24,508 nt of DNA, from UHGV virus genome UHGV-0135138; one strand, 5' to 3'. The notes under the pieces are model-generated. The model did not search any database and was not told the DNA's origin. It worked only from the letters and a program-made list of their open reading frames with translations. Below, piece by piece: positions 1,934 through 24,103 of this stretch; within the stretch, counting starts at the first letter, position 1, and the number at the start of each line of letters is the position of its first letter. A program made the position numbers and the translations under genes. This DNA is from a virus.

Positions 1934-3508
1934 ATGGAATTGAACGACAAACAAATTAAGGATCTGGTGGCGCGACGCCACCCGGAATACGAAAAGAAAA
2001 AAGAACATTGGGACTTCCTCGCCAGCACTTACGCTGGCGGGCGTGGTTGGTTTACAGACAATATCTTTCGTTACTTTAAAGAGGGAGATCAGGAGTTTAA
2101 GGAGAGAGTTGAGCGTGCTTATCGCTTCAACCACACTCGTGAGGTGGTAAACCTCATCAACAAATATCTCTTTAAAGAAGACATTCATAGAAATATCGAA
2201 GAGGCACCAGAGCAGATCCGCAATTTCTGGAAACGTGCGACTCGCCAGAATGCCTCTATTGACTCATTTATGGCCGCTATTGATTTGCAGTCGTCTATTT
2301 ACGGTCGCATATGGGTTGTTGTCGATAGCACGATGAGTGGTGATGTTGAGTCAGTAGCTGACGAGAAAAAGAAAGATGCTCGCGCCTACGCCTACTGGAT
2401 TTCACCTCAGCAAATGCTGGATGTGGCATGGGACGACGACGGGAATATGTTGTGGGCGTTAATTGTGGAAGTCGCTCGTGATGACGCAGATCCTTTTACT
2501 TCTACAGGTCAGGAATACCAACGTTATCGTCTGTGGACACAAAATACGTGGTATCTGTTCCGTGAGGAAGTGAAGAAGGGCGCTGGTGGAGCAGGTCGTC
2601 GTCAGGCAAAAGTTATTTTAGAGGATAGCGGTGCGCATAATCTCGGCGTAGTTCCGGTGTTTCCTGTTGATTGTATTGGAGAAAGTGAATCACCGTATTT
2701 CAGCCCATCGTTGATCGATGATATCGCTTATCTTGATCGTGCGGTTGCAAACTATCTGTCAAACCTTGATGCCATTATTCAGGATCAGACATTTAGCCAG
2801 TTGGCTATACCGGTACAGTCGCTTTTACCTGGTGATGAAAACCACACTAAAGTGCTTGAAATGGGCACAAAGCGAGTCTTCACCTACGATTCTGAAGGTG
2901 GAAACCAGCCGTTTTATCTGTCACCAGACCCGAAACAAGCTCAGATGATCATCACTACGATTAAGACGGTGATTAACGAAATCTACCATTCAGTTGGTGT
3001 AGCTGGTGAGCGAACGAAGCAGGACAACGCACAGGGAATAGATAATTCATCTGGTGCCGCAAAAATGTATGACTTCCAGCGTGTAAATAGCTTACTCGTC
3101 ACAAAAGCAGAACGTCTGGAAAGGGCTGAGCGTCAAATCATGCAACTGGTTGCGAAATGGATGGGGGTAGATCTGGACGAAGATCACTCATTAATTGCGT
3201 ATCCAGAAAGTTTCGATATTCGTGGCCTTACTGATGAATTTTCTGTTGCCGAGAAACTGTCGTTACTTCAGGCACCGGACTCTGTACGTCGTCACCAGAT
3301 GGAAATGCTGATTGAGAAGATTTTCCCGAACATCACTGAGGCGATGAAGAAGGAATTTGATAAAGATCTCTTGAATTTTCCGCCAAAAAATGATCTAAAT
3401 ACCCTTGAAAATAAGTCAGCACTTACTTATGATCAAGGCGCAGCCCAAGAAAGCGGGCAAGATCAACCCCGAGGGAATGGGGACTCATCTACTCAAGAGA
3501 ACGAGTGA
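1934..3508 (+). CDS. portal protein (putative)
   Basis: 524-aa ORF immediately downstream of the large terminase, the canonical portal position. Size and acidic C-terminal tail fit portal proteins. No motif-level confirmation is possible without a search. Confidence 0.65.
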   Translation: MELNDKQIKDLVARRHPEYEKKKEHWDFLASTYAGGRGWFTDNIFRYFKEGDQEFKERVERAYRFNHTREVVNLINKYLFKEDIHRNIEEAPEQIRNFWKRATRQNASIDSFMAAIDLQSSIYGRIWVVVDSTMSGDVESVADEKKKDARAYAYWISPQQMLDVAWDDDGNMLWALIVEVARDDADPFTSTGQEYQRYRLWTQNTWYLFREEVKKGAGGAGRRQAKVILEDSGAHNLGVVPVFPVDCIGESESPYFSPSLIDDIAYLDRAVANYLSNLDAIIQDQTFSQLAIPVQSLLPGDENHTKVLEMGTKRVFTYDSEGGNQPFYLSPDPKQAQMIITTIKTVINEIYHSVGVAGERTKQDNAQGIDNSSGAAKMYDFQRVNSLLVTKAERLERAERQIMQLVAKWMGVDLDEDHSLIAYPESFDIRGLTDEFSVAEKLSLLQAPDSVRRHQMEMLIEKIFPNITEAMKKEFDKDLLNFPPKNDLNTLENKSALTYDQGAAQESGQDQPRGNGDSSTQENE

Positions 3509-3529: not shown

Positions 3530-4417
3530 ATGAAACTGTGGCAAATGCTTTTGGCCCGTCGTGGTCTGATGGATGTTGCTGAAGCGCATGAGCGTGGAGG
3601 CGCTGGCGGTGTAGCTGCTGATAATGAGCAGAGTACACAAGATCCTGACAAACAGGGTGAACAAAAAGAGCAGCCGAAGGGTGATGACGAATACGCTGGC
3701 ATGACTCATGAAGAGTTACTGGCCGAACTTCGTAAAACCAAGAAAGCTGGTGCTGAACTGCTGAAAGAGAACATGAAGCGCAAAGAGAAAGAGCGCACAT
3801 TGGCCGATCAGCTTGCTCAGTACGGTGATATCGACCCGACGCGTGCTCGCCAGCTTTTAGAAGCTGAACAGGCCGCAGAAAATGCACGTCGTGAGGCGGA
3901 GCAAGCTGAACTGGAGCGTCGTGGTGAGTTCGATGCTGTAAAAAAACAGATGGTCGAAGCACACCAGGCAGAGCTGGCACAGCGTGACGAACGTTATGTT
4001 GCTCTGGAAAGTGAAAACGCATCACTGAAATCTCAATTAGTCGAGATGACTGTGGGCGCTTCCTTCAGTAACTCTCTCTTCCTACGTGACAAAGTTCTGA
4101 TGACTCCGGCAAAAGCCCGCGTGATCTACGGCTCTCATTTTGAAGTGGGTGAAGACGGTAGCGTAGTGGGTTATGACAAACCGGCAGGTCATAAAGAACG
4201 AGCTGTTCTGGTTGACGGTGAAGGTAAGCCGTTGCCGTTTGAATCCGCGATTGAACGCATTGTGCGGGCAGATCCGGAAGCTGACGCATTGATGCGTAGC
4301 GAAGCCAAGCAGGGTGTAGGCTCACATTCCAAATCGACCTACACAATATCCCGACCGAAGAACAAGTCGACTATGGATAAGTTGGCCTCCGGTCTGGGGA
4401 AAATTGGACTTAAGTAA
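3530..4417 (+). CDS. scaffolding protein (putative)
   Basis: 295-aa ORF between portal and capsid genes. Central region is highly charged and helical/coiled-coil-like (ELLAELRKTKKAGAELLKENMKRKEKERTLADQLAQ...EAEQAAENARREAEQAELERRGE). AAGGGA RBS 7 nt upstream of the ATG. No protease motif recognised. Confidence 0.55.
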   Translation: MKLWQMLLARRGLMDVAEAHERGGAGGVAADNEQSTQDPDKQGEQKEQPKGDDEYAGMTHEELLAELRKTKKAGAELLKENMKRKEKERTLADQLAQYGDIDPTRARQLLEAEQAAENARREAEQAELERRGEFDAVKKQMVEAHQAELAQRDERYVALESENASLKSQLVEMTVGASFSNSLFLRDKVLMTPAKARVIYGSHFEVGEDGSVVGYDKPAGHKERAVLVDGEGKPLPFESAIERIVRADPEADALMRSEAKQGVGSHSKSTYTISRPKNKSTMDKLASGLGKIGLK

Positions 4418-4442
4418 CATCTAAATCAAAGGGAATTGGTAG

Positions 4443-5324
4443 ATGCCATTACTGCGTGAAGAAGCTGAAAAGCTGTCTAACAACGAACTCGAACAGGGTG
4501 TGATCGAAACTATCATCGATCGCGATGACCTGTTTGCCATCCTGCCGTTCATGAAGATTAACTCTAAGGCGTATCTGTACAATCGCGAGGCTACCCTGAG
4601 TGAAGCAGAGTTTATTGACGTGAACGATACCATCACGGAAGGCGCAGCAACCTTCACAGAACATGTAGCGAAGCTGCGTATTCTGGCTGGTGACGTAGAC
4701 GTTGATAAATTCCTGGCAACCACGATGGCCGACACTAACAACCAGTTGGCCATTCAGGTTCGTCAGAAAGTTAAAGGTCTGGCTCGTGCATTCCGCCGTA
4801 ATCTGATTTTGGGGGATTCCAGCACCAATGCTAAGGCTTTTGATGGTATTCCACGTCTGATGCATAACGACCAGAAGATCGATATCGCTAAAGCCTCTAT
4901 GACTTTCTCTATGTTTGATGAGTTGGTGGATGCAGTGAAAGATCTGGGCGCGGACTGCATTATGATGCGTTCAGAACATCTTCGTGCTTACCGTGCGCTG
5001 CTGCGTACCGTCAACATCGGACCGTCAGAAATTATGATAGAGAATTTTGGGCGTCCTATGCTGTGTCACAACGGAATTCCGTTTATTGTTAATGACTTTA
5101 TTCCGTTGACAACCGAAAAGGATGCAGCGGATATTTACTGTTTGCATTTATCGGAAGAGAACGGTTTGACTGGCCTGTATGGCGGCGACAATGCTGGTAT
5201 TGTCGTTGAAAACATTGGTACGGTTCAGAATAAAGATGCAACCCGTACTCGTGTAAAATGGTACTGCTCTCTAGCGAATAAGCACGATAAGGCTATCGCT
5301 GCACTGACTAATGTAAAAATTTAA
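4443..5324 (+). CDS. major capsid protein (putative)
   Basis: 293-aa ORF directly after the scaffold candidate, with the same CAAAGGGAATT RBS context (4427-4437 and 3516-3526), followed by a strong intrinsic terminator. Position and size fit a major capsid protein. Confidence 0.6.
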   Translation: MPLLREEAEKLSNNELEQGVIETIIDRDDLFAILPFMKINSKAYLYNREATLSEAEFIDVNDTITEGAATFTEHVAKLRILAGDVDVDKFLATTMADTNNQLAIQVRQKVKGLARAFRRNLILGDSSTNAKAFDGIPRLMHNDQKIDIAKASMTFSMFDELVDAVKDLGADCIMMRSEHLRAYRALLRTVNIGPSEIMIENFGRPMLCHNGIPFIVNDFIPLTTEKDAADIYCLHLSEENGLTGLYGGDNAGIVVENIGTVQNKDATRTRVKWYCSLANKHDKAIAALTNVKI

Positions 5325-5333
5325 TCAATGTGG

Positions 5334-5351
5334 TAGGTAAGTAATTACCTA
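5334..5351 (+). promoter_or_regulatory. gene-junction element TAGGTAAGTAATTACCTA (imperfect inverted repeat TAGGTAA-n4-TTACCTA)
   Basis: 17/18 identical to 1905-1922. Lies 10 nt after the capsid stop and just upstream of the terminator hairpin. Confidence 0.35.
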
Positions 5352-5355
5352 TGTT

Positions 5356-5384
5356 AAAGGGTGGGCTATACGCCCACCCTTTTT
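5356..5384 (+). terminator. intrinsic (rho-independent) terminator after the capsid gene
   Basis: AAAGGGTGGGC-TATAC-GCCCACCCTTTTT: GC-rich stem of 8 bp (extendable to 11 with flanking A/T) followed by a T5 run. Confidence 0.8.
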
Positions 5385-5397
5385 GTAGGAATGAGAA

Positions 5398-6057
5398 ATG
5401 CCAGAACAAAAGATGATGATTACCGAAGAGGCCTTTTCGGATTTCACGGGGCATATGTGCCGTGTCGGATTTACCAATTCTATCTCCGATGAACCTTTAA
5501 CCGAGCGACAACAAAGTCAGCTATCAGCTTGTTTGCAGGCGACTTCCTTCACCCAATCCGTAAACATAACCCCTGCTTCAGCGTCAGTTTTGGTGGGGAA
5601 AAGCGTTCAACTAAGTGCAGGTATCAGTATGGGTAAGAGTGCCGGTTTATTCACCTGGAATTCAGCCAATGATCAAACTGCAACCGTTAACAGCAATGGG
5701 TTAGTAACTGGCGTAGCCCCTGGCAAAGTAAAAATTACTGCAACTGATCAGGAAACCCAGCTTTCCGCGTCAGCTGAAGTGACTGTAAATCCGGTAGCTG
5801 TTCAATCTGTAACTATAACGCCAGACTCAACCTCTGTTGAGAAAGGGAAATCAGTCAATCTGAAAGCGAATATCCAGCCGTCAAATGCGACGAATAAAGC
5901 AGTTACCTGGTCTTCCAAAAATGAAGATAAGGCAACGGTAAACCAGAGCGGTAACGTTACTGGTGTTGCTGCTGGTACTGCCACGATTGAGGTAACTACT
6001 CATGATGGTAGCCACAAAGCAACAGCGATCGTAGAGGTTACTGGCGCACAGGAATAA
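5398..6057 (+). CDS. Ig-like (Big_2-type) domain protein, candidate head decoration protein
   Basis: 219 aa. Two tandem ~80-aa segments with the bacterial Ig-like group 2 pattern (ITP.S.SV..GKSV.L.A...P.NATNK.VTWSS.N...ATVN.SG.VTGVA.G.A.I..T). Preceded by an AGGA RBS and located right after the capsid gene. Confidence 0.7.
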   Translation: MPEQKMMITEEAFSDFTGHMCRVGFTNSISDEPLTERQQSQLSACLQATSFTQSVNITPASASVLVGKSVQLSAGISMGKSAGLFTWNSANDQTATVNSNGLVTGVAPGKVKITATDQETQLSASAEVTVNPVAVQSVTITPDSTSVEKGKSVNLKANIQPSNATNKAVTWSSKNEDKATVNQSGNVTGVAAGTATIEVTTHDGSHKATAIVEVTGAQE

Positions 6058-6101
6058 TCAGTATTGGGCGGCGAAAGCTGCCCATGTAGAGAGAAAGCGT
6101 A

Positions 6102-6536
6102 ATGAAACCTGCAAAAATTGTTCTATTAGAACCACAATTTTCCAGTTATTCGGGAATGCTGTGCGGTGTTCAGTTCGAGAATGGTGTGTCCATCGCAGAG
6201 TTGCCTTTTGTCGATCAGCAGAGAATTTGTGCCTCAATGCGAGCTTCAACAGTAGAGGGCAAAAATGTTTCTCCATCTGCCGCATACAGTGATCGTGGTG
6301 AATTGACCGCAGACCTGATTACAGAGCCAGTAGCGCCTGACATTGTACCAATGAAACGTGGGATGCCAGATGGACCGACCAAACAGATCCAGACTTTCAC
6401 ACGAGAAGAGCTGGAGTCAATTGCAGACAATGAAGGCATTGCCGGTCTACGTGTAATTGGGAATCAGATGGGTGTTAAAGCGAAAGGAATTGTCGAGATG
6501 ATTGAAGGTATCCTGAAAGCACAAGGCGGTGAGTAA
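6102..6536 (+). CDS. hypothetical head-associated protein sharing its N-terminal module with the upstream Ig-like protein
   Basis: 144 aa. N-terminal ~45 aa (EPQFSSYSGMLCGVQFENGVSIAELPFVDQQRICASMRA) aligns with the N-terminus of the 5398-6057 product (EEAFSDFTGHMCRVGFTNSISDEPLTERQQSQLSACLQA); the C-terminal part is unrelated. Stop overlaps the next start (TAATG). Confidence 0.6.
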   Translation: MKPAKIVLLEPQFSSYSGMLCGVQFENGVSIAELPFVDQQRICASMRASTVEGKNVSPSAAYSDRGELTADLITEPVAPDIVPMKRGMPDGPTKQIQTFTREELESIADNEGIAGLRVIGNQMGVKAKGIVEMIEGILKAQGGE

Positions 6537-7369
6537 TGGCGCAGATCGACTCGTATCGTAGCGGTGAAGCTGTTTCCCTTTCATTTGCCTTCAACGTGCT
6601 GGATATCGAATCTGCTACCTACACAGTAAAGGACAGCACCGGGGGTATTCTCGTTGATGGCGAACTGCTAGAAATTGCCAGCGGGCAAATGTCGATTCCG
6701 GTTGTTGTTCCGGCTGAATACAACCAGCTTTCTGAGAAAGAACGAGATCTGCGGTACGTCATTGTGAAAGCTGTTGCATCGGGTCTGACGCATGAAGAGC
6801 GGCAAATGTATGTTCTGCTGAATAGTTTTGAATTGTCGATACCGGAACAGTCGTTTGCAACTGTCGCTGATGCTCAAATGCAGGCGATCGATATGCTGAA
6901 TGGGGACACTTTGCTGTCGGATGGTGAAGGCTTAATGCGCAAGCGTCTCATTGAGGCTACCAGACGAATTAAAACTTTACCGTTCTCAATCCGCAAAATT
7001 CTACGTATCGACTTTGACCGATACGATCGCCCTCAAAATATGCTGAATGTGTATGACATTCCGTGGGGGGCAGATGGAGCGTACCGGCATGATTTAGTCG
7101 ATTGGGAAAAGATGACGCAGGAGAAGTTTGAAGAGTTCCCTGACTATTTCAAAGAAGCGTTGATGCTTGCCGTTGTCAACGAAGCGTGTGAGATCGCAAA
7201 TGGCAATGATGTAGCCGCAGCACGAGAGGATGGCATTTTGTCAGAGTCCATCGGTGAAACAACCAACATGTACCGTACCGGTAAAGCTGCAAACGTGCAT
7301 GTGGCTCGCAGTACCTGGCGCTTGCTGGTCAGTTACATCAACAACCGTATGATTGTTCGCCGTGCGTAA
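6536..7369 (+). CDS. hypothetical structural protein (neck / head completion region)
   Basis: 277-aa ORF, translationally coupled to neighbours, in the block between head and tail genes. No recognisable motif. Confidence 0.5.
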   Translation: MAQIDSYRSGEAVSLSFAFNVLDIESATYTVKDSTGGILVDGELLEIASGQMSIPVVVPAEYNQLSEKERDLRYVIVKAVASGLTHEERQMYVLLNSFELSIPEQSFATVADAQMQAIDMLNGDTLLSDGEGLMRKRLIEATRRIKTLPFSIRKILRIDFDRYDRPQNMLNVYDIPWGADGAYRHDLVDWEKMTQEKFEEFPDYFKEALMLAVVNEACEIANGNDVAAAREDGILSESIGETTNMYRTGKAANVHVARSTWRLLVSYINNRMIVRRA

Positions 7370-7448
7370 CGCCAGTCGCATTATTTACTTTTGGTCGAAA
7401 GGGTTTTTGGCCAGTAATGAGAGCGACCGACAACAACAGGGAGAGTGC

Positions 7449-8666: not shown

Positions 8667-8716
8667 TGTTAGCGCAATAAATGCGTAGAATTAAAGGAAA
8701 AAGGAGTTTTCCATCA

Positions 8717-9463
8717 ATGTCTAATACCCATGTAAAAAACATCAAACTTGGTGCCTGTAAGGTGTCGTTTGGTGGTGTGGATTTGGGGTACACCAAAGGT
8801 GGTGTTCAGGTTGAAGTTGCCACTGAAACGCTGAAAGTCACCGTCGACCAGCACGGTCAGACAATTATGTCCGAGCTGGTGCAGGGTCGTAACATTACCA
8901 TTACTGCGCCGCTGGCCGAGTCTGTATTGAAAAATATGGTCGATCTGATGCCGGGGTCTACTCTGAGCGAAGACGACAACGCTGTGACCATTACTTCCGC
9001 ACAGGGCGTCAATCTGATCGATGTGGCGAAGGAGCTGGTTCTGACTCCGCAGGACACCACCGACTATGTGTTGACCATCCCAAAAGCGGCAACCGCGGGC
9101 AACTTCACGATGACCTACCAGTCTGATGATATCCGTGTGTTCTCTGTTCAATTCAGCGCATACCCAGATGACGCGGGTGTGTTGGGGAAAATGGGAATGC
9201 ACAAGCCTGTTGAGAGTATCGCGATTAATTCAGCTACCCAAACAGTCAAAGTGGGGGCAAAACTCCAGTTAAGTGCGGCTTTCACTCCAGCGGATGCAAG
9301 TAATAAATCTGGGGTATGGGAGTCTAATGCCCCAGATAAGGCTGTTGTAGATCAAAATGGGGTTGTTTCGGGCAAGGCGGTTGGCTCAGTCGAGATTACT
9401 TTCACCGCCGATGACAGCGGAAAAAAAGCAACTAAATCAATTTCGGTAACAGCAGCAGGCTAA
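8717..9463 (+). CDS. major tail (tube) protein with C-terminal Ig-like (Big_2-type) domain
   Basis: ORF is open from 8681, but the ATG at 8717 follows the strong RBS AAAGGAAAAAGGAG, giving ~248 aa. The C-terminal ~85 aa (IAINSATQTVKVGAKLQLSAAFTPADASNKSGVWESNAPDKAVVDQNGVVSGKAVGSVEITFTADDSGKKATKSISVTAAG) has the same Ig-like pattern as the 5398-6057 product. Followed by a hairpin and the chaperone-tape measure pair. Confidence 0.8.
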   Translation: MSNTHVKNIKLGACKVSFGGVDLGYTKGGVQVEVATETLKVTVDQHGQTIMSELVQGRNITITAPLAESVLKNMVDLMPGSTLSEDDNAVTITSAQGVNLIDVAKELVLTPQDTTDYVLTIPKAATAGNFTMTYQSDDIRVFSVQFSAYPDDAGVLGKMGMHKPVESIAINSATQTVKVGAKLQLSAAFTPADASNKSGVWESNAPDKAVVDQNGVVSGKAVGSVEITFTADDSGKKATKSISVTAAG

Positions 9464-21568: not shown

Positions 21569-24103
21569 ATGTGGTACAGGGAAGGTACTATCACATTTAC
21601 ACAGGGTAGCAATACTCTGGTTGGGGCAGGGACAGCCTGGAACGTAACCGCTAATGGTGTGTTGCCGGGTATGATCGTCGTTGGCCCCGATAATAAACTG
21701 TATGAGATCAAGCGCGTAACCAGTGACACGAATATTGTTCTCTCAGAACCTTATACCGGTGAAACTCAGTCTGAAGTTCCGTGCCGAATCATTACGACCT
21801 ATGAGGGCGACTTAACGCAGTTTAGCGCACGCTTTACTGCACTAATGTCGCGTATGTCGGCTGATTCCAAGTCCATGCGTAGTTGGCTGACTGCCGTGGA
21901 TGAAATCACAATTGAACGTGAAGATGGTACGGAATTAACCATAAAATCCCTTACTCAGATCGTTAATGAGCACAACAAAAACGTAGAGTGGTATAAAAAT
22001 AACACTGATGAAATTGATTCCGCTGGCACCTATGCGCGTGAGGCCGCGAGTAGCGCGACAACTGCTGCGCAAAACGCTGAGCGCGTTGAACAGATCGCGC
22101 AAAATATTGCTAACAGTATAAGTACGGCCCAGCAGGCTGCCACAGATGCTGCAAATAGTGCCGGTGCCGCGAAAACGTCAGAAACGAATGCGGCAGCGTC
22201 ACAACAATCAGCAGCCACTTCTGCATCCACCGCGACCACGAAAGCGTCAGAAGCAGCCTCCTTAGCCAGGGATGCGTCGGCTTCAAAAGAGGCGGCAAAA
22301 TCATCAGAAGCGAACGCGAAAGCGTCGGAAACCAGTGCCGAATCCTCAAAAACGGCAGCCGCATCGTCAGCCAGTTCGGCAGCGTCATCGGCATCGTCTG
22401 CGTCGGCTTCAAAAGATGAAGCGACTAAACAGGCGTCAGCCGCAAAAGATAGTGCTATGACTGCATCCTCGAAAGCAACAGAGGCGACAGGCAGTGCAAC
22501 GGCTGCCTCTCAGAGCAAAACTGCTGCTGAATCCGCTGCGACCCGTGCGGAAGCTGCTGCTGCTCGTGCTGAAGAGATTGCCGGTGCAGTTGCGATGGAA
22601 GACGCAAGCCTTACAACTAAAGGTGTTGTGAAACTTAGCAGTGCGACCAACAGCACTTCAGAGTCACTGGCTGCAACCCCAAAAGCGGTAAAAGCTGCAT
22701 ATGACCTGGCTGACGGGAAATACACTGCGCAGGATGCAACGACAACCCAGAAAGGGATAATCCAGCTAAGTAGCGCCATCAATGACGAATCTGAAACGCT
22801 TGCTGCAACGCCAAAAGCGGTAAAAGTCGCCTATGACAATGCCGAAAACCGCCTGCAGAAAGATCAGAATGGCGCTGATATCCCTGACAAGAACGCATTC
22901 AGGGAAAGTCTTGGGCTGGGGGATGCCGCCACCAAAAATATCGGTACTACAGCCGGCACCGTAGCGGCAGGAAACGACTCCAGACTGGTTAACGCACTGC
23001 AAAAATCCACTTCAGCCCTGGCCGTGGACCTGAATACACTGGGGAGTCTGGAAGTCCAGGGAACTTATTATCAGCCAGCGGATAAAGGGGCAACAGCTGC
23101 GCATCATTACCCGGTGCTCCGGTCCGGGACATTGCAGGTTCTGCCTGGTGTCTGGGGAGGCTGCCAACAGGAATATACGAGCTGGAATCCACCGAGAAAA
23201 TTTGTGAGAACACTGACAGGCTATTTCAAAGGTAATGGCCCGTGGTCGCCGTGGGTGGAGGTGGCGTTTACCGACAGTACAGTGGCTGTTGCGACCGCAG
23301 CGACAAAATTGCAGACGACCAGAAGAGTTGGTGGTGTGGATTTTGACGGGACATCAGATATCAGCCTCCCCGGAGTGGATGCGCCAGGCGATCAGGATAC
23401 GACAGGTAATGCGGCTACTGCGACCAAATTGCAGACGCCAGTGAATATTAACGGTACAGCGTTTGATGGTAGCCACGATATCACGATCCGGGATGAAGGT
23501 GCATTTCAGAAGCCTGCGCTCTTTATACATTCCTCTGTAGATTTGAACACGCTAGGTGGTCCAGGTAGCGAAGGTTTTTATTTTCAGAAATACGGGAGTG
23601 TGGCGACAGTTGATCATCATTACCCAACCAACAGACCAGGCACGCTGACTGTACTGCGTGGTGGATTTGACGGATGCCAGCAGGAATATTTTAGTGTTAA
23701 TCCTCCAAGGAAATTTTTCAGGGCATTAACAGGAGCCTGGAACGGACAGGATGGCCCATGGTCAGACTGGTTTGAGATTCAGACTCTGGGAGGTGGAAGT
23801 GGAGGTACGCAGGTTTTTGGAACCGAATATCAAAATAAATCATCAGAACGCGGTCCGGGTGTTACATACACTAATAGTCGATCGTATCCGATTATGGTGA
23901 TCATTGATGGATACTACGGAGGTGGTGACGGTTTTCATCTTTTTATAAACGATGAAATATTGATATCCCCATCTACATCTTCAGGACAAAATGACGACCA
24001 ATTTCAGTTTACTTTCATCGTTCCGGCAGGCGCAACGTACATGATCTTTGAAAAAACTTTCGGTACGAATTTCCGTATTCACACCTGGTTGGAGTTTTGT
24101 TAA
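21569..24103 (+). CDS. stf: side tail fibre protein (Stf-like), mosaic
   Basis: 844 aa with GGAG RBS. Long Ala/Ser/Thr-rich shaft (AAKTSETNAAASQQSAATSASTATTKASEAA...) that I recall as nearly identical to lambda Stf. Conserved tail-fibre motifs TKGVVKLSSATNSTSESLAATPKAVKAAYDLADGKYTAQDATTTQKGIIQLSSAINDESETLAATPKAVKVAYDNAEN. Distinct N-terminus and a C-terminal region with internal duplications. Confidence 0.9.
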   Translation: MWYREGTITFTQGSNTLVGAGTAWNVTANGVLPGMIVVGPDNKLYEIKRVTSDTNIVLSEPYTGETQSEVPCRIITTYEGDLTQFSARFTALMSRMSADSKSMRSWLTAVDEITIEREDGTELTIKSLTQIVNEHNKNVEWYKNNTDEIDSAGTYAREAASSATTAAQNAERVEQIAQNIANSISTAQQAATDAANSAGAAKTSETNAAASQQSAATSASTATTKASEAASLARDASASKEAAKSSEANAKASETSAESSKTAAASSASSAASSASSASASKDEATKQASAAKDSAMTASSKATEATGSATAASQSKTAAESAATRAEAAAARAEEIAGAVAMEDASLTTKGVVKLSSATNSTSESLAATPKAVKAAYDLADGKYTAQDATTTQKGIIQLSSAINDESETLAATPKAVKVAYDNAENRLQKDQNGADIPDKNAFRESLGLGDAATKNIGTTAGTVAAGNDSRLVNALQKSTSALAVDLNTLGSLEVQGTYYQPADKGATAAHHYPVLRSGTLQVLPGVWGGCQQEYTSWNPPRKFVRTLTGYFKGNGPWSPWVEVAFTDSTVAVATAATKLQTTRRVGGVDFDGTSDISLPGVDAPGDQDTTGNAATATKLQTPVNINGTAFDGSHDITIRDEGAFQKPALFIHSSVDLNTLGGPGSEGFYFQKYGSVATVDHHYPTNRPGTLTVLRGGFDGCQQEYFSVNPPRKFFRALTGAWNGQDGPWSDWFEIQTLGGGSGGTQVFGTEYQNKSSERGPGVTYTNSRSYPIMVIIDGYYGGGDGFHLFINDEILISPSTSSGQNDDQFQFTFIVPAGATYMIFEKTFGTNFRIHTWLEFC

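Follow-up and report, generated by a model that had tools for sequence, protein, structure and literature searches.

The 24,508-nucleotide stretch of UHGV virus genome UHGV-0135138 considered here (24.5 kb; hereafter the window) holds the virion-structure genes of an SSU5-like phage-plasmid, all of which lie on the + strand. Behind the gene for the major capsid protein (MCP; 4443..5324) and ahead of a candidate gene for an Ad1-type head-tail adaptor, it carries two adjacent open reading frames, ORF1 (5398..6057, 219 aa) and ORF2 (6102..6536, 144 aa). A preliminary description had placed both genes correctly and had taken their products for two side-by-side decoration proteins built on a common capsid anchor. 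Both products begin with the same type of domain, here called the N-module (aa 1-50 in each, at 5398..5547 and 6102..6251, respectively), and to judge from sequence comparison and structure prediction they are paralogous solely in this sheet-plus-helix domain of ~50 residues.

The relationship between the two N-termini is apparent in a single BLASTP comparison (ORF1 1-62 versus ORF2 1-61: 29% identity, 58% positives, E=7e-8), in agreement with the roughly 30 percent identity claimed beforehand, and ORF1 residues 3-125 match phrog_916, the PHROG family of ORF2 (E=1.1e-8). Comparison of profiles built from six ORF1-type and 15 ORF2-type N-termini by hhalign identifies them as homologous (probability 98.5%, E=1.7e-15, 49 columns). 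AlphaFold2 (AF2) predicts the same strand-strand-strand-helix-strand fold for both, with strands at residues 6-8, 18-20, 23-26 and 48-50 and a helix starting at residue 36 (36-45 in ORF1, 36-42 in ORF2), at a predicted local distance difference test score (pLDDT) of 84-92 (88-92 in ORF2); the models are independent only in part, because the alignment behind that of ORF1 also contained some N-termini of the ORF2 type.

Beyond the N-module, the two proteins differ in their C-termini, as had been described. ORF1 carries two immunoglobulin (Ig)-like domains, Pfam Big_2 (PF02368) being matched in two stretches after residue ~52 with 153.3 bits against a cut-off of 22.8 (E=1.7e-45). The domains correspond to aa 54-131 (5557..5790; predicted strands 54-131) and aa 134-215 (5797..6042; best Pfam stretch 134-212, predicted strands 137-215), and the AF2 model has a mean pLDDT of 89.7. 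Over its full length, ORF1 matches phrog_215 (E=6e-70), a family with the generic label of a 'head and packaging' structural protein with an Ig domain. The remainder of ORF2, previously regarded as one domain of ~95 aa, comprises a helix at residues 58-67, a low-confidence flexible linker at about 68-100 (the segment aa 51-97, at 6252..6392, has a pLDDT of 54-75, with values <50 at 87-95) and a three-helix domain of ~45 aa at 101-140 (pLDDT ~87), which lies within the C-terminal segment aa 98-144 (6393..6533). This HeH-like C-terminal domain has a Rho-N/SAP-type fold, and its consensus among ORF2-type proteins is YTxEELExIADxxGIxGLRxIxxxxGVKxxSIxxLIxxILxAQ. The linker of these proteins spans 30-87 residues (median 51) with a slightly negative net charge, and they frequently end in an acidic tail. 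The full-length profile match of ORF2 to phrog_916 (E=9.7e-67) leads to a family without assigned function. A DNA-binding role for the C-terminal domain was considered and judged unlikely, since the domain is acidic (net -3; family median isoelectric point 4.64), which would favor a protein partner rather than DNA.

The N-module defines a large protein family. A 52-position profile searched against 1.84 billion cluster representatives (50%-identity clusters) matched 992 proteins at E<=1e-3, including 257 at E<=1e-10, with lengths of 68-467 aa; in all of them the module occupies residues ~1-52, the sole exception being a spurious RTX protein. In an alignment of 139 sequences (137 retrieved representatives and the two window proteins), 122 show the ORF2 architecture, and other module-bearing members possess Ala-rich C-terminal tails. 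Five representatives of 68-85 aa consist of the N-module and a short acidic or proline-rich tail alone; their gene calls may be truncated, or they may represent bare anchors comparable to the vibriophage relatives of the T5 decoration protein pb10. Pfam contains no family for the N-module or for the ORF2 C-terminal domain, and a few family members give weak Pfam matches only (DUF7440, Rho_N). Sequence searches of the PDB with ORF2, the ORF1 N-terminus, the ORF2-family profile and the module profile yielded nothing significant, and Foldseek returned nothing below E=2 from the PDB and only family members and marginal matches from BFVD. The family thus amounts to about a thousand 50%-identity clusters lacking a Pfam description, and it occurs in the head module of SSU5-like phage-plasmids that are common in Klebsiella, E. 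coli, Enterobacter and Salmonella, and likewise in Yersinia pestis (pMT-type plasmids) and Acinetobacter.

Homologues of ORF2 lie directly 3' of the MCP gene in every lineage inspected and are followed by an Ad1-like gene encoding ~250-280 aa. This order is found in E. coli PhiR41_1, in phages BUCTxx99 (Stenotrophomonas), nickie (Pseudomonas) and JGB6 (Xanthomonas), in an A. baumannii plasmid and in three metagenomic contigs, PhiR41_1 having the ORF2 homologue without ORF1. Among cultured phages, homologues are confined to siphophages of 103-122 kb, and ORF2 has matches in 946 plasmids of PLSDB, of which 137 come from Acinetobacter and 11 from Aeromonas. On the basis of this comparison, ORF2 is regarded as the ancestral form and as a core gene of the head module in SSU5-like, Nickievirus-like, RHEph10-like and related phages and phage-plasmids. 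Acinetobacter plasmids of ~110 kb (e.g., A. baumannii pDA33098-108, 108 kb) encode a portal, a DUF6651 scaffold, an MCP, an ORF2 homologue and an Ad1-like protein, a gene content which indicates that SSU5-related phage-plasmids exist outside Enterobacterales. In the public record of Xanthomonas phage JGB6, the capsid gene is divided into three coding sequences and the frame of the C-terminal domain of the ORF2 homologue is lost; these splits are probably sequencing frameshifts.

ORF1 appears from its distribution to be an enterobacterial add-on, composed of the module and one to three Big_2 domains, two of them in the window. Its N-module matches 769 plasmids in PLSDB, including Y. pestis pMT, all from Enterobacterales except for one chance match. 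Among otherwise collinear SSU5-like elements, the number of Big_2 domains is one in Klebsiella pJN2-26, K. pneumoniae pB-KP1118-1 and E. coli pLAO4, two in the window and Y. pestis pMT, and three in Salmonella phage SSU5 and Escherichia phage Cyrano (pLF82), and the gene is absent from PhiR41_1. A Big_2 domain that shares 39% identity with the second one of ORF1 forms the C-terminus of the tail tube protein (phrog_1280; 8681-9463), and this phage is predicted to bear related Ig domains on both its tail tube and a putative head protein.

In other lineages, the slot of ORF1 is filled differently. A 119-kb contig of Ensifer sp. ENS10 carries, in the order MCP gene, fusion gene, ORF2 homologue (hhalign E=8.7e-20) and Ad1-like gene, a fusion of the N-module with an SGNH/GDSL hydrolase (539 aa; locus coordinates 5001-6620) at the position of ORF1, and another member of the family, 467 aa long, is likewise an SGNH-like fusion. 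In Rhizobium phages RHEph10 (locus 566-1099) and RHph_X66 (locus 824-1390), a protein consisting of the N-module and a conserved C-terminal domain of ~90 aa is encoded after the MCP, next comes a separate gene for a protein of ~540 aa (an esterase by the RHEph10 annotation), and then an ORF2 homologue with a long C-terminal extension. An origin of the Ensifer protein by fusion of this separate esterase gene was rejected, as the two esterases are unrelated by BLASTP. The comparison across lineages lends strong support to a single module with exchangeable C-terminal cargo, which upholds the earlier proposal of a shared module joined to alternative C-terminal domains; the capsid anchoring contained in the same proposal is an interpretation, taken up below. 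Ig-like domains and SGNH esterases are typical of exposed virion proteins, and these cargo types point to exposure on the particle. If head-bound, a module-tethered esterase would represent an unusual head-associated activity. It is very improbable that the module is instead an oligomerisation, folding or chaperone-recognition domain of proteins that act in the cell, outside the particle. Although its lack of known structural relatives would suit such a role, it keeps a strictly conserved place in the head module, the cargo is of the exposed type just mentioned, and the tail tube protein of this phage bears the same type of Big_2 domain.

In the surrounding region (4400-7400), the window is 91% identical to Cyrano and 79% identical to SSU5 at the DNA level. 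Upstream of the MCP gene lie the genes for the terminase small subunit (19-651), the terminase large subunit (651-1907), the portal (1934-3508) and a DUF6651-type scaffold (3530-4417). The MCP, presumed to be the partner of the module, matches phrog_212 (major head protein, E=1e-104), shows only weak Pfam matches (SrpI-like, SU10_MCP, GP7), and has homologues annotated as MCP in Cyrano and SSU5. Among solved structures, type 2A encapsulin shell proteins (SrpI 6x8m, E=3e-4) come closest to it in sequence; no solved phage capsid of this MCP lineage was found. Between the MCP gene and ORF1, a strong terminator-like hairpin followed by a T-run (5359..5385) can be read as GGGTGGGC-TATAC-GCCCACCC-TTTTT, with a GC-rich stem of 8 bp, and was also matched in a consensus scan. 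This putative terminator may lower downstream expression relative to that of the MCP.

At the other end of the pair, the ORF2 stop overlaps the start of the adaptor candidate (ATG 6536) in the sequence TAATG at 6533-6538, as it likewise does in SSU5, Cyrano and PhiR41_1, an arrangement consistent with translational coupling. The adaptor candidate itself (6536..7369, 277 aa) belongs to phrog_912, and in Cyrano its homologue carries the annotation 'Ad1 Head-tail adaptor protein'. This neighborhood raises the possibility that docking of the module takes place at the portal, the adaptor or the neck instead of on MCP capsomers; a collar- or whisker-like structure would then be built from ORF1 and the esterase fusions, with ORF2 as a factor in head completion. 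The location of the genes between those for the MCP and the adaptor, the overlap with the adaptor start, and the unusually large size of the adaptor-like protein, which is co-conserved with ORF2, would all fit, as would the speculation that YqbF, a Bacillus subtilis prophage protein compared with ORF2 below, cooperates with YqbG in connector assembly (PMC11526630). However, the Virfam-style annotation of Cyrano contains a full neck set (Ad1, Hc1, Ne1 and Tc1) without ORF2, and the described partner of the lambda protein gpFI is the capsid, so that docking on the neck seems unlikely. Downstream of the adaptor candidate, the window encodes further neck proteins, the Ig-bearing tail tube, a tape measure, lambda-like tail tip proteins and a tail fibre. 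In the tail fibre gene (21569-24103), composition shifts at 22001-23000, where the GC content is 0.543 compared with ~0.47 elsewhere, the AT skew is 0.30 and the GC skew is about 0, which suggests that this segment is mosaic or repeat-rich.

We see about an even chance that the N-module docks on the head, most likely by binding the MCP, with ORF1 serving in Ig display and ORF2 acting as a factor similar to YqbF and lambda gpFI. As an assembly or packaging factor, ORF2 would use the module to hold its helical domain on proheads or heads; ORF1 would have arisen by duplication of the module and fusion to Big_2 domains, and would display these Ig domains on the head. A literature search found no virion proteomics or capsid structures for SSU5-like, Nickievirus or RHEph10-like phages.

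The two-decorator proposal of the preliminary description can be stated as a rival to this reading: both proteins would be true decorators, held stably on the mature capsid by the module, with Ig domains displayed in one case and a tethered helical domain in the other. It would fit a shared module with exchangeable cargos, the argument that esterase and Ig cargos are useful only on the particle and that the module presumably attaches stably, the variable linkers and acidic tails of ORF2 homologues, which resemble surface-exposed tethers, and the classification of phrog_215 as a structural protein with an Ig domain. Nevertheless, ORF2 is a strictly conserved core gene in very distant lineages, whereas decorators are usually accessory, and its best-conserved part is a Rho-N/SAP-type domain without an obvious role on the capsid surface. 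In addition, ORF2 is the counterpart of YqbF and gpFI in both position and architecture. A pair of decorators appears rather unlikely, and for ORF2 the role of a YqbF/FI-like head factor is the more probable one.

YqbF from the skin prophage of Bacillus subtilis (PDB 2HJQ) consists of the Pfam domains YqbF (PF14553, residues 7-49) and YqbF_HeH (PF21488, residues 58-96). Its gene is flanked by those for the major capsid protein and the gp6/gp15-type adaptor YqbG (PMC11526630). The same gene arrangement occurs in Bacillus phages 0105phi7-2, BMBtp14 and B83, gp07 being the YqbF-like protein of 0105phi7-2. ORF2 resembles YqbF in architecture and shares the place between MCP and adaptor-type genes. 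Collinear motifs are recognizable in ORF2 and YqbF (GITFRAGVSQTVP versus GVQFENGVSIAELP, and YTESEL versus FTREEL), and the motif G-x-x-F-x-x-G-V-S/E-x-x-V-P is common to the N-module and YqbF. Unlike YqbF, ORF2 homologues have a far longer acidic linker and at times long acidic tails. The gene for lambda gpFI (Pfam PF14000; C-terminal domain, PDB 2LSM) lies directly after that of the MCP and before a head-completion gene, and phage phi80 has an annotated terminator between its MCP (gpE) and FI genes, a site equivalent to that of the putative hairpin terminator here. In an architecture analogous to that of ORF2, but with the domain order reversed, gpFI is an acidic two-domain protein with a flexible acidic linker, composed of a helical domain (with a weak sub-threshold Pfam SAP match) and a small domain. 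It is reported to act as a link from the capsid to the terminase-DNA complex, and its small non-helical domain binds the major capsid protein. A protein of the gpFI type is characterized by a requirement for efficient DNA packaging in vivo and by its absence from the virion.

Sequence and profile comparisons give no significant support for the proposed affinity of ORF2 to these factors. Neither the Pfam YqbF domains nor Packaging_FI (PF14000) match ORF1, ORF2 or the module family. Profile comparisons with YqbF are not significant (E=0.004-0.04, probability 1-9%): hhalign of the N-module against the YqbF profile gave E=0.0038 over 17 columns with a probability of 8.7%, and a deeper local run gave E=0.012 with a probability of 3.6%. 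A four-sequence gpFI profile compared with ORF2, the N-module and YqbF was likewise not significant (E 0.1-0.5), and deepening the YqbF and gpFI profiles from IMG/VR yielded close relatives only. ORF2 is therefore no more than a candidate member of the YqbF family, and by sequence it does not belong to Packaging_FI.

A broader evolutionary scenario is possible but tentative, namely that the N-module is the docking domain of an ancient YqbF/FI-like factor that was repeatedly duplicated and became a general display anchor, with different lineages placing the second copy in one and the same slot behind the capsid gene and equipping it with Ig adhesins in Enterobacterales, SGNH esterases in Ensifer/Rhizobium, or other domains. 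If true, this would trace the evolution of a decoration protein from a packaging or assembly chaperone, and would for the first time assign a function to the widespread 'small HeH protein after the capsid gene'. If the module merely represents a conserved N-terminal domain of two head-module proteins, its recognition would be a useful annotation and an ordinary finding. If it docks on capsids, it would account for Ig-like adhesins or esterases hung on phage heads, and offer a handle on YqbF-like HeH proteins and possibly on the relation between FI-type chaperones and decoration proteins.

For ORF1, the closest parallels are the Ig-bearing decorators T4 Hoc and T5 pb10, and under the head-docking reading it would be a decorator of this type in function, homologous to neither. 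In Hoc, the Ig domains are N-terminal and the capsid-binding part is C-terminal (PMC5292684). ORF1 resembles Hoc in its tandem Ig-like domains and their probable display on the particle, but has the opposite orientation and is not Hoc-like in arrangement; the Hoc-like family phrog_1149 is matched by the ORF1 Ig domains only (E=9e-6). In pb10, an N-terminal anchor and a C-terminal Ig-like domain are independent of each other, the anchor is formed by five alpha-helices in 77 residues with the motif F-G-x2-L-P-x4-5-F-F, and distant relatives consist of the anchor alone (PMC5292684). Decorators of the pb10 type are further characterized by high-affinity binding at the hexamer centres of the mature capsid. 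The likeness to pb10 drawn in the preliminary description therefore extends to the architecture of ORF1, with its N-terminal module and two C-terminal Big_2 domains, and not to ORF2, which lacks an Ig-like domain. Homology to pb10 was rejected: the ~50-residue sheet-plus-helix module shows neither the five-helix fold nor the motif of the pb10 anchor, and pb10 is absent among the structural matches listed. ORF1 plausibly works like pb10 by analogy, and its module, if capsid-docking, would provide a natural display tag as small as ~50 aa, similar to pb10 of T5.
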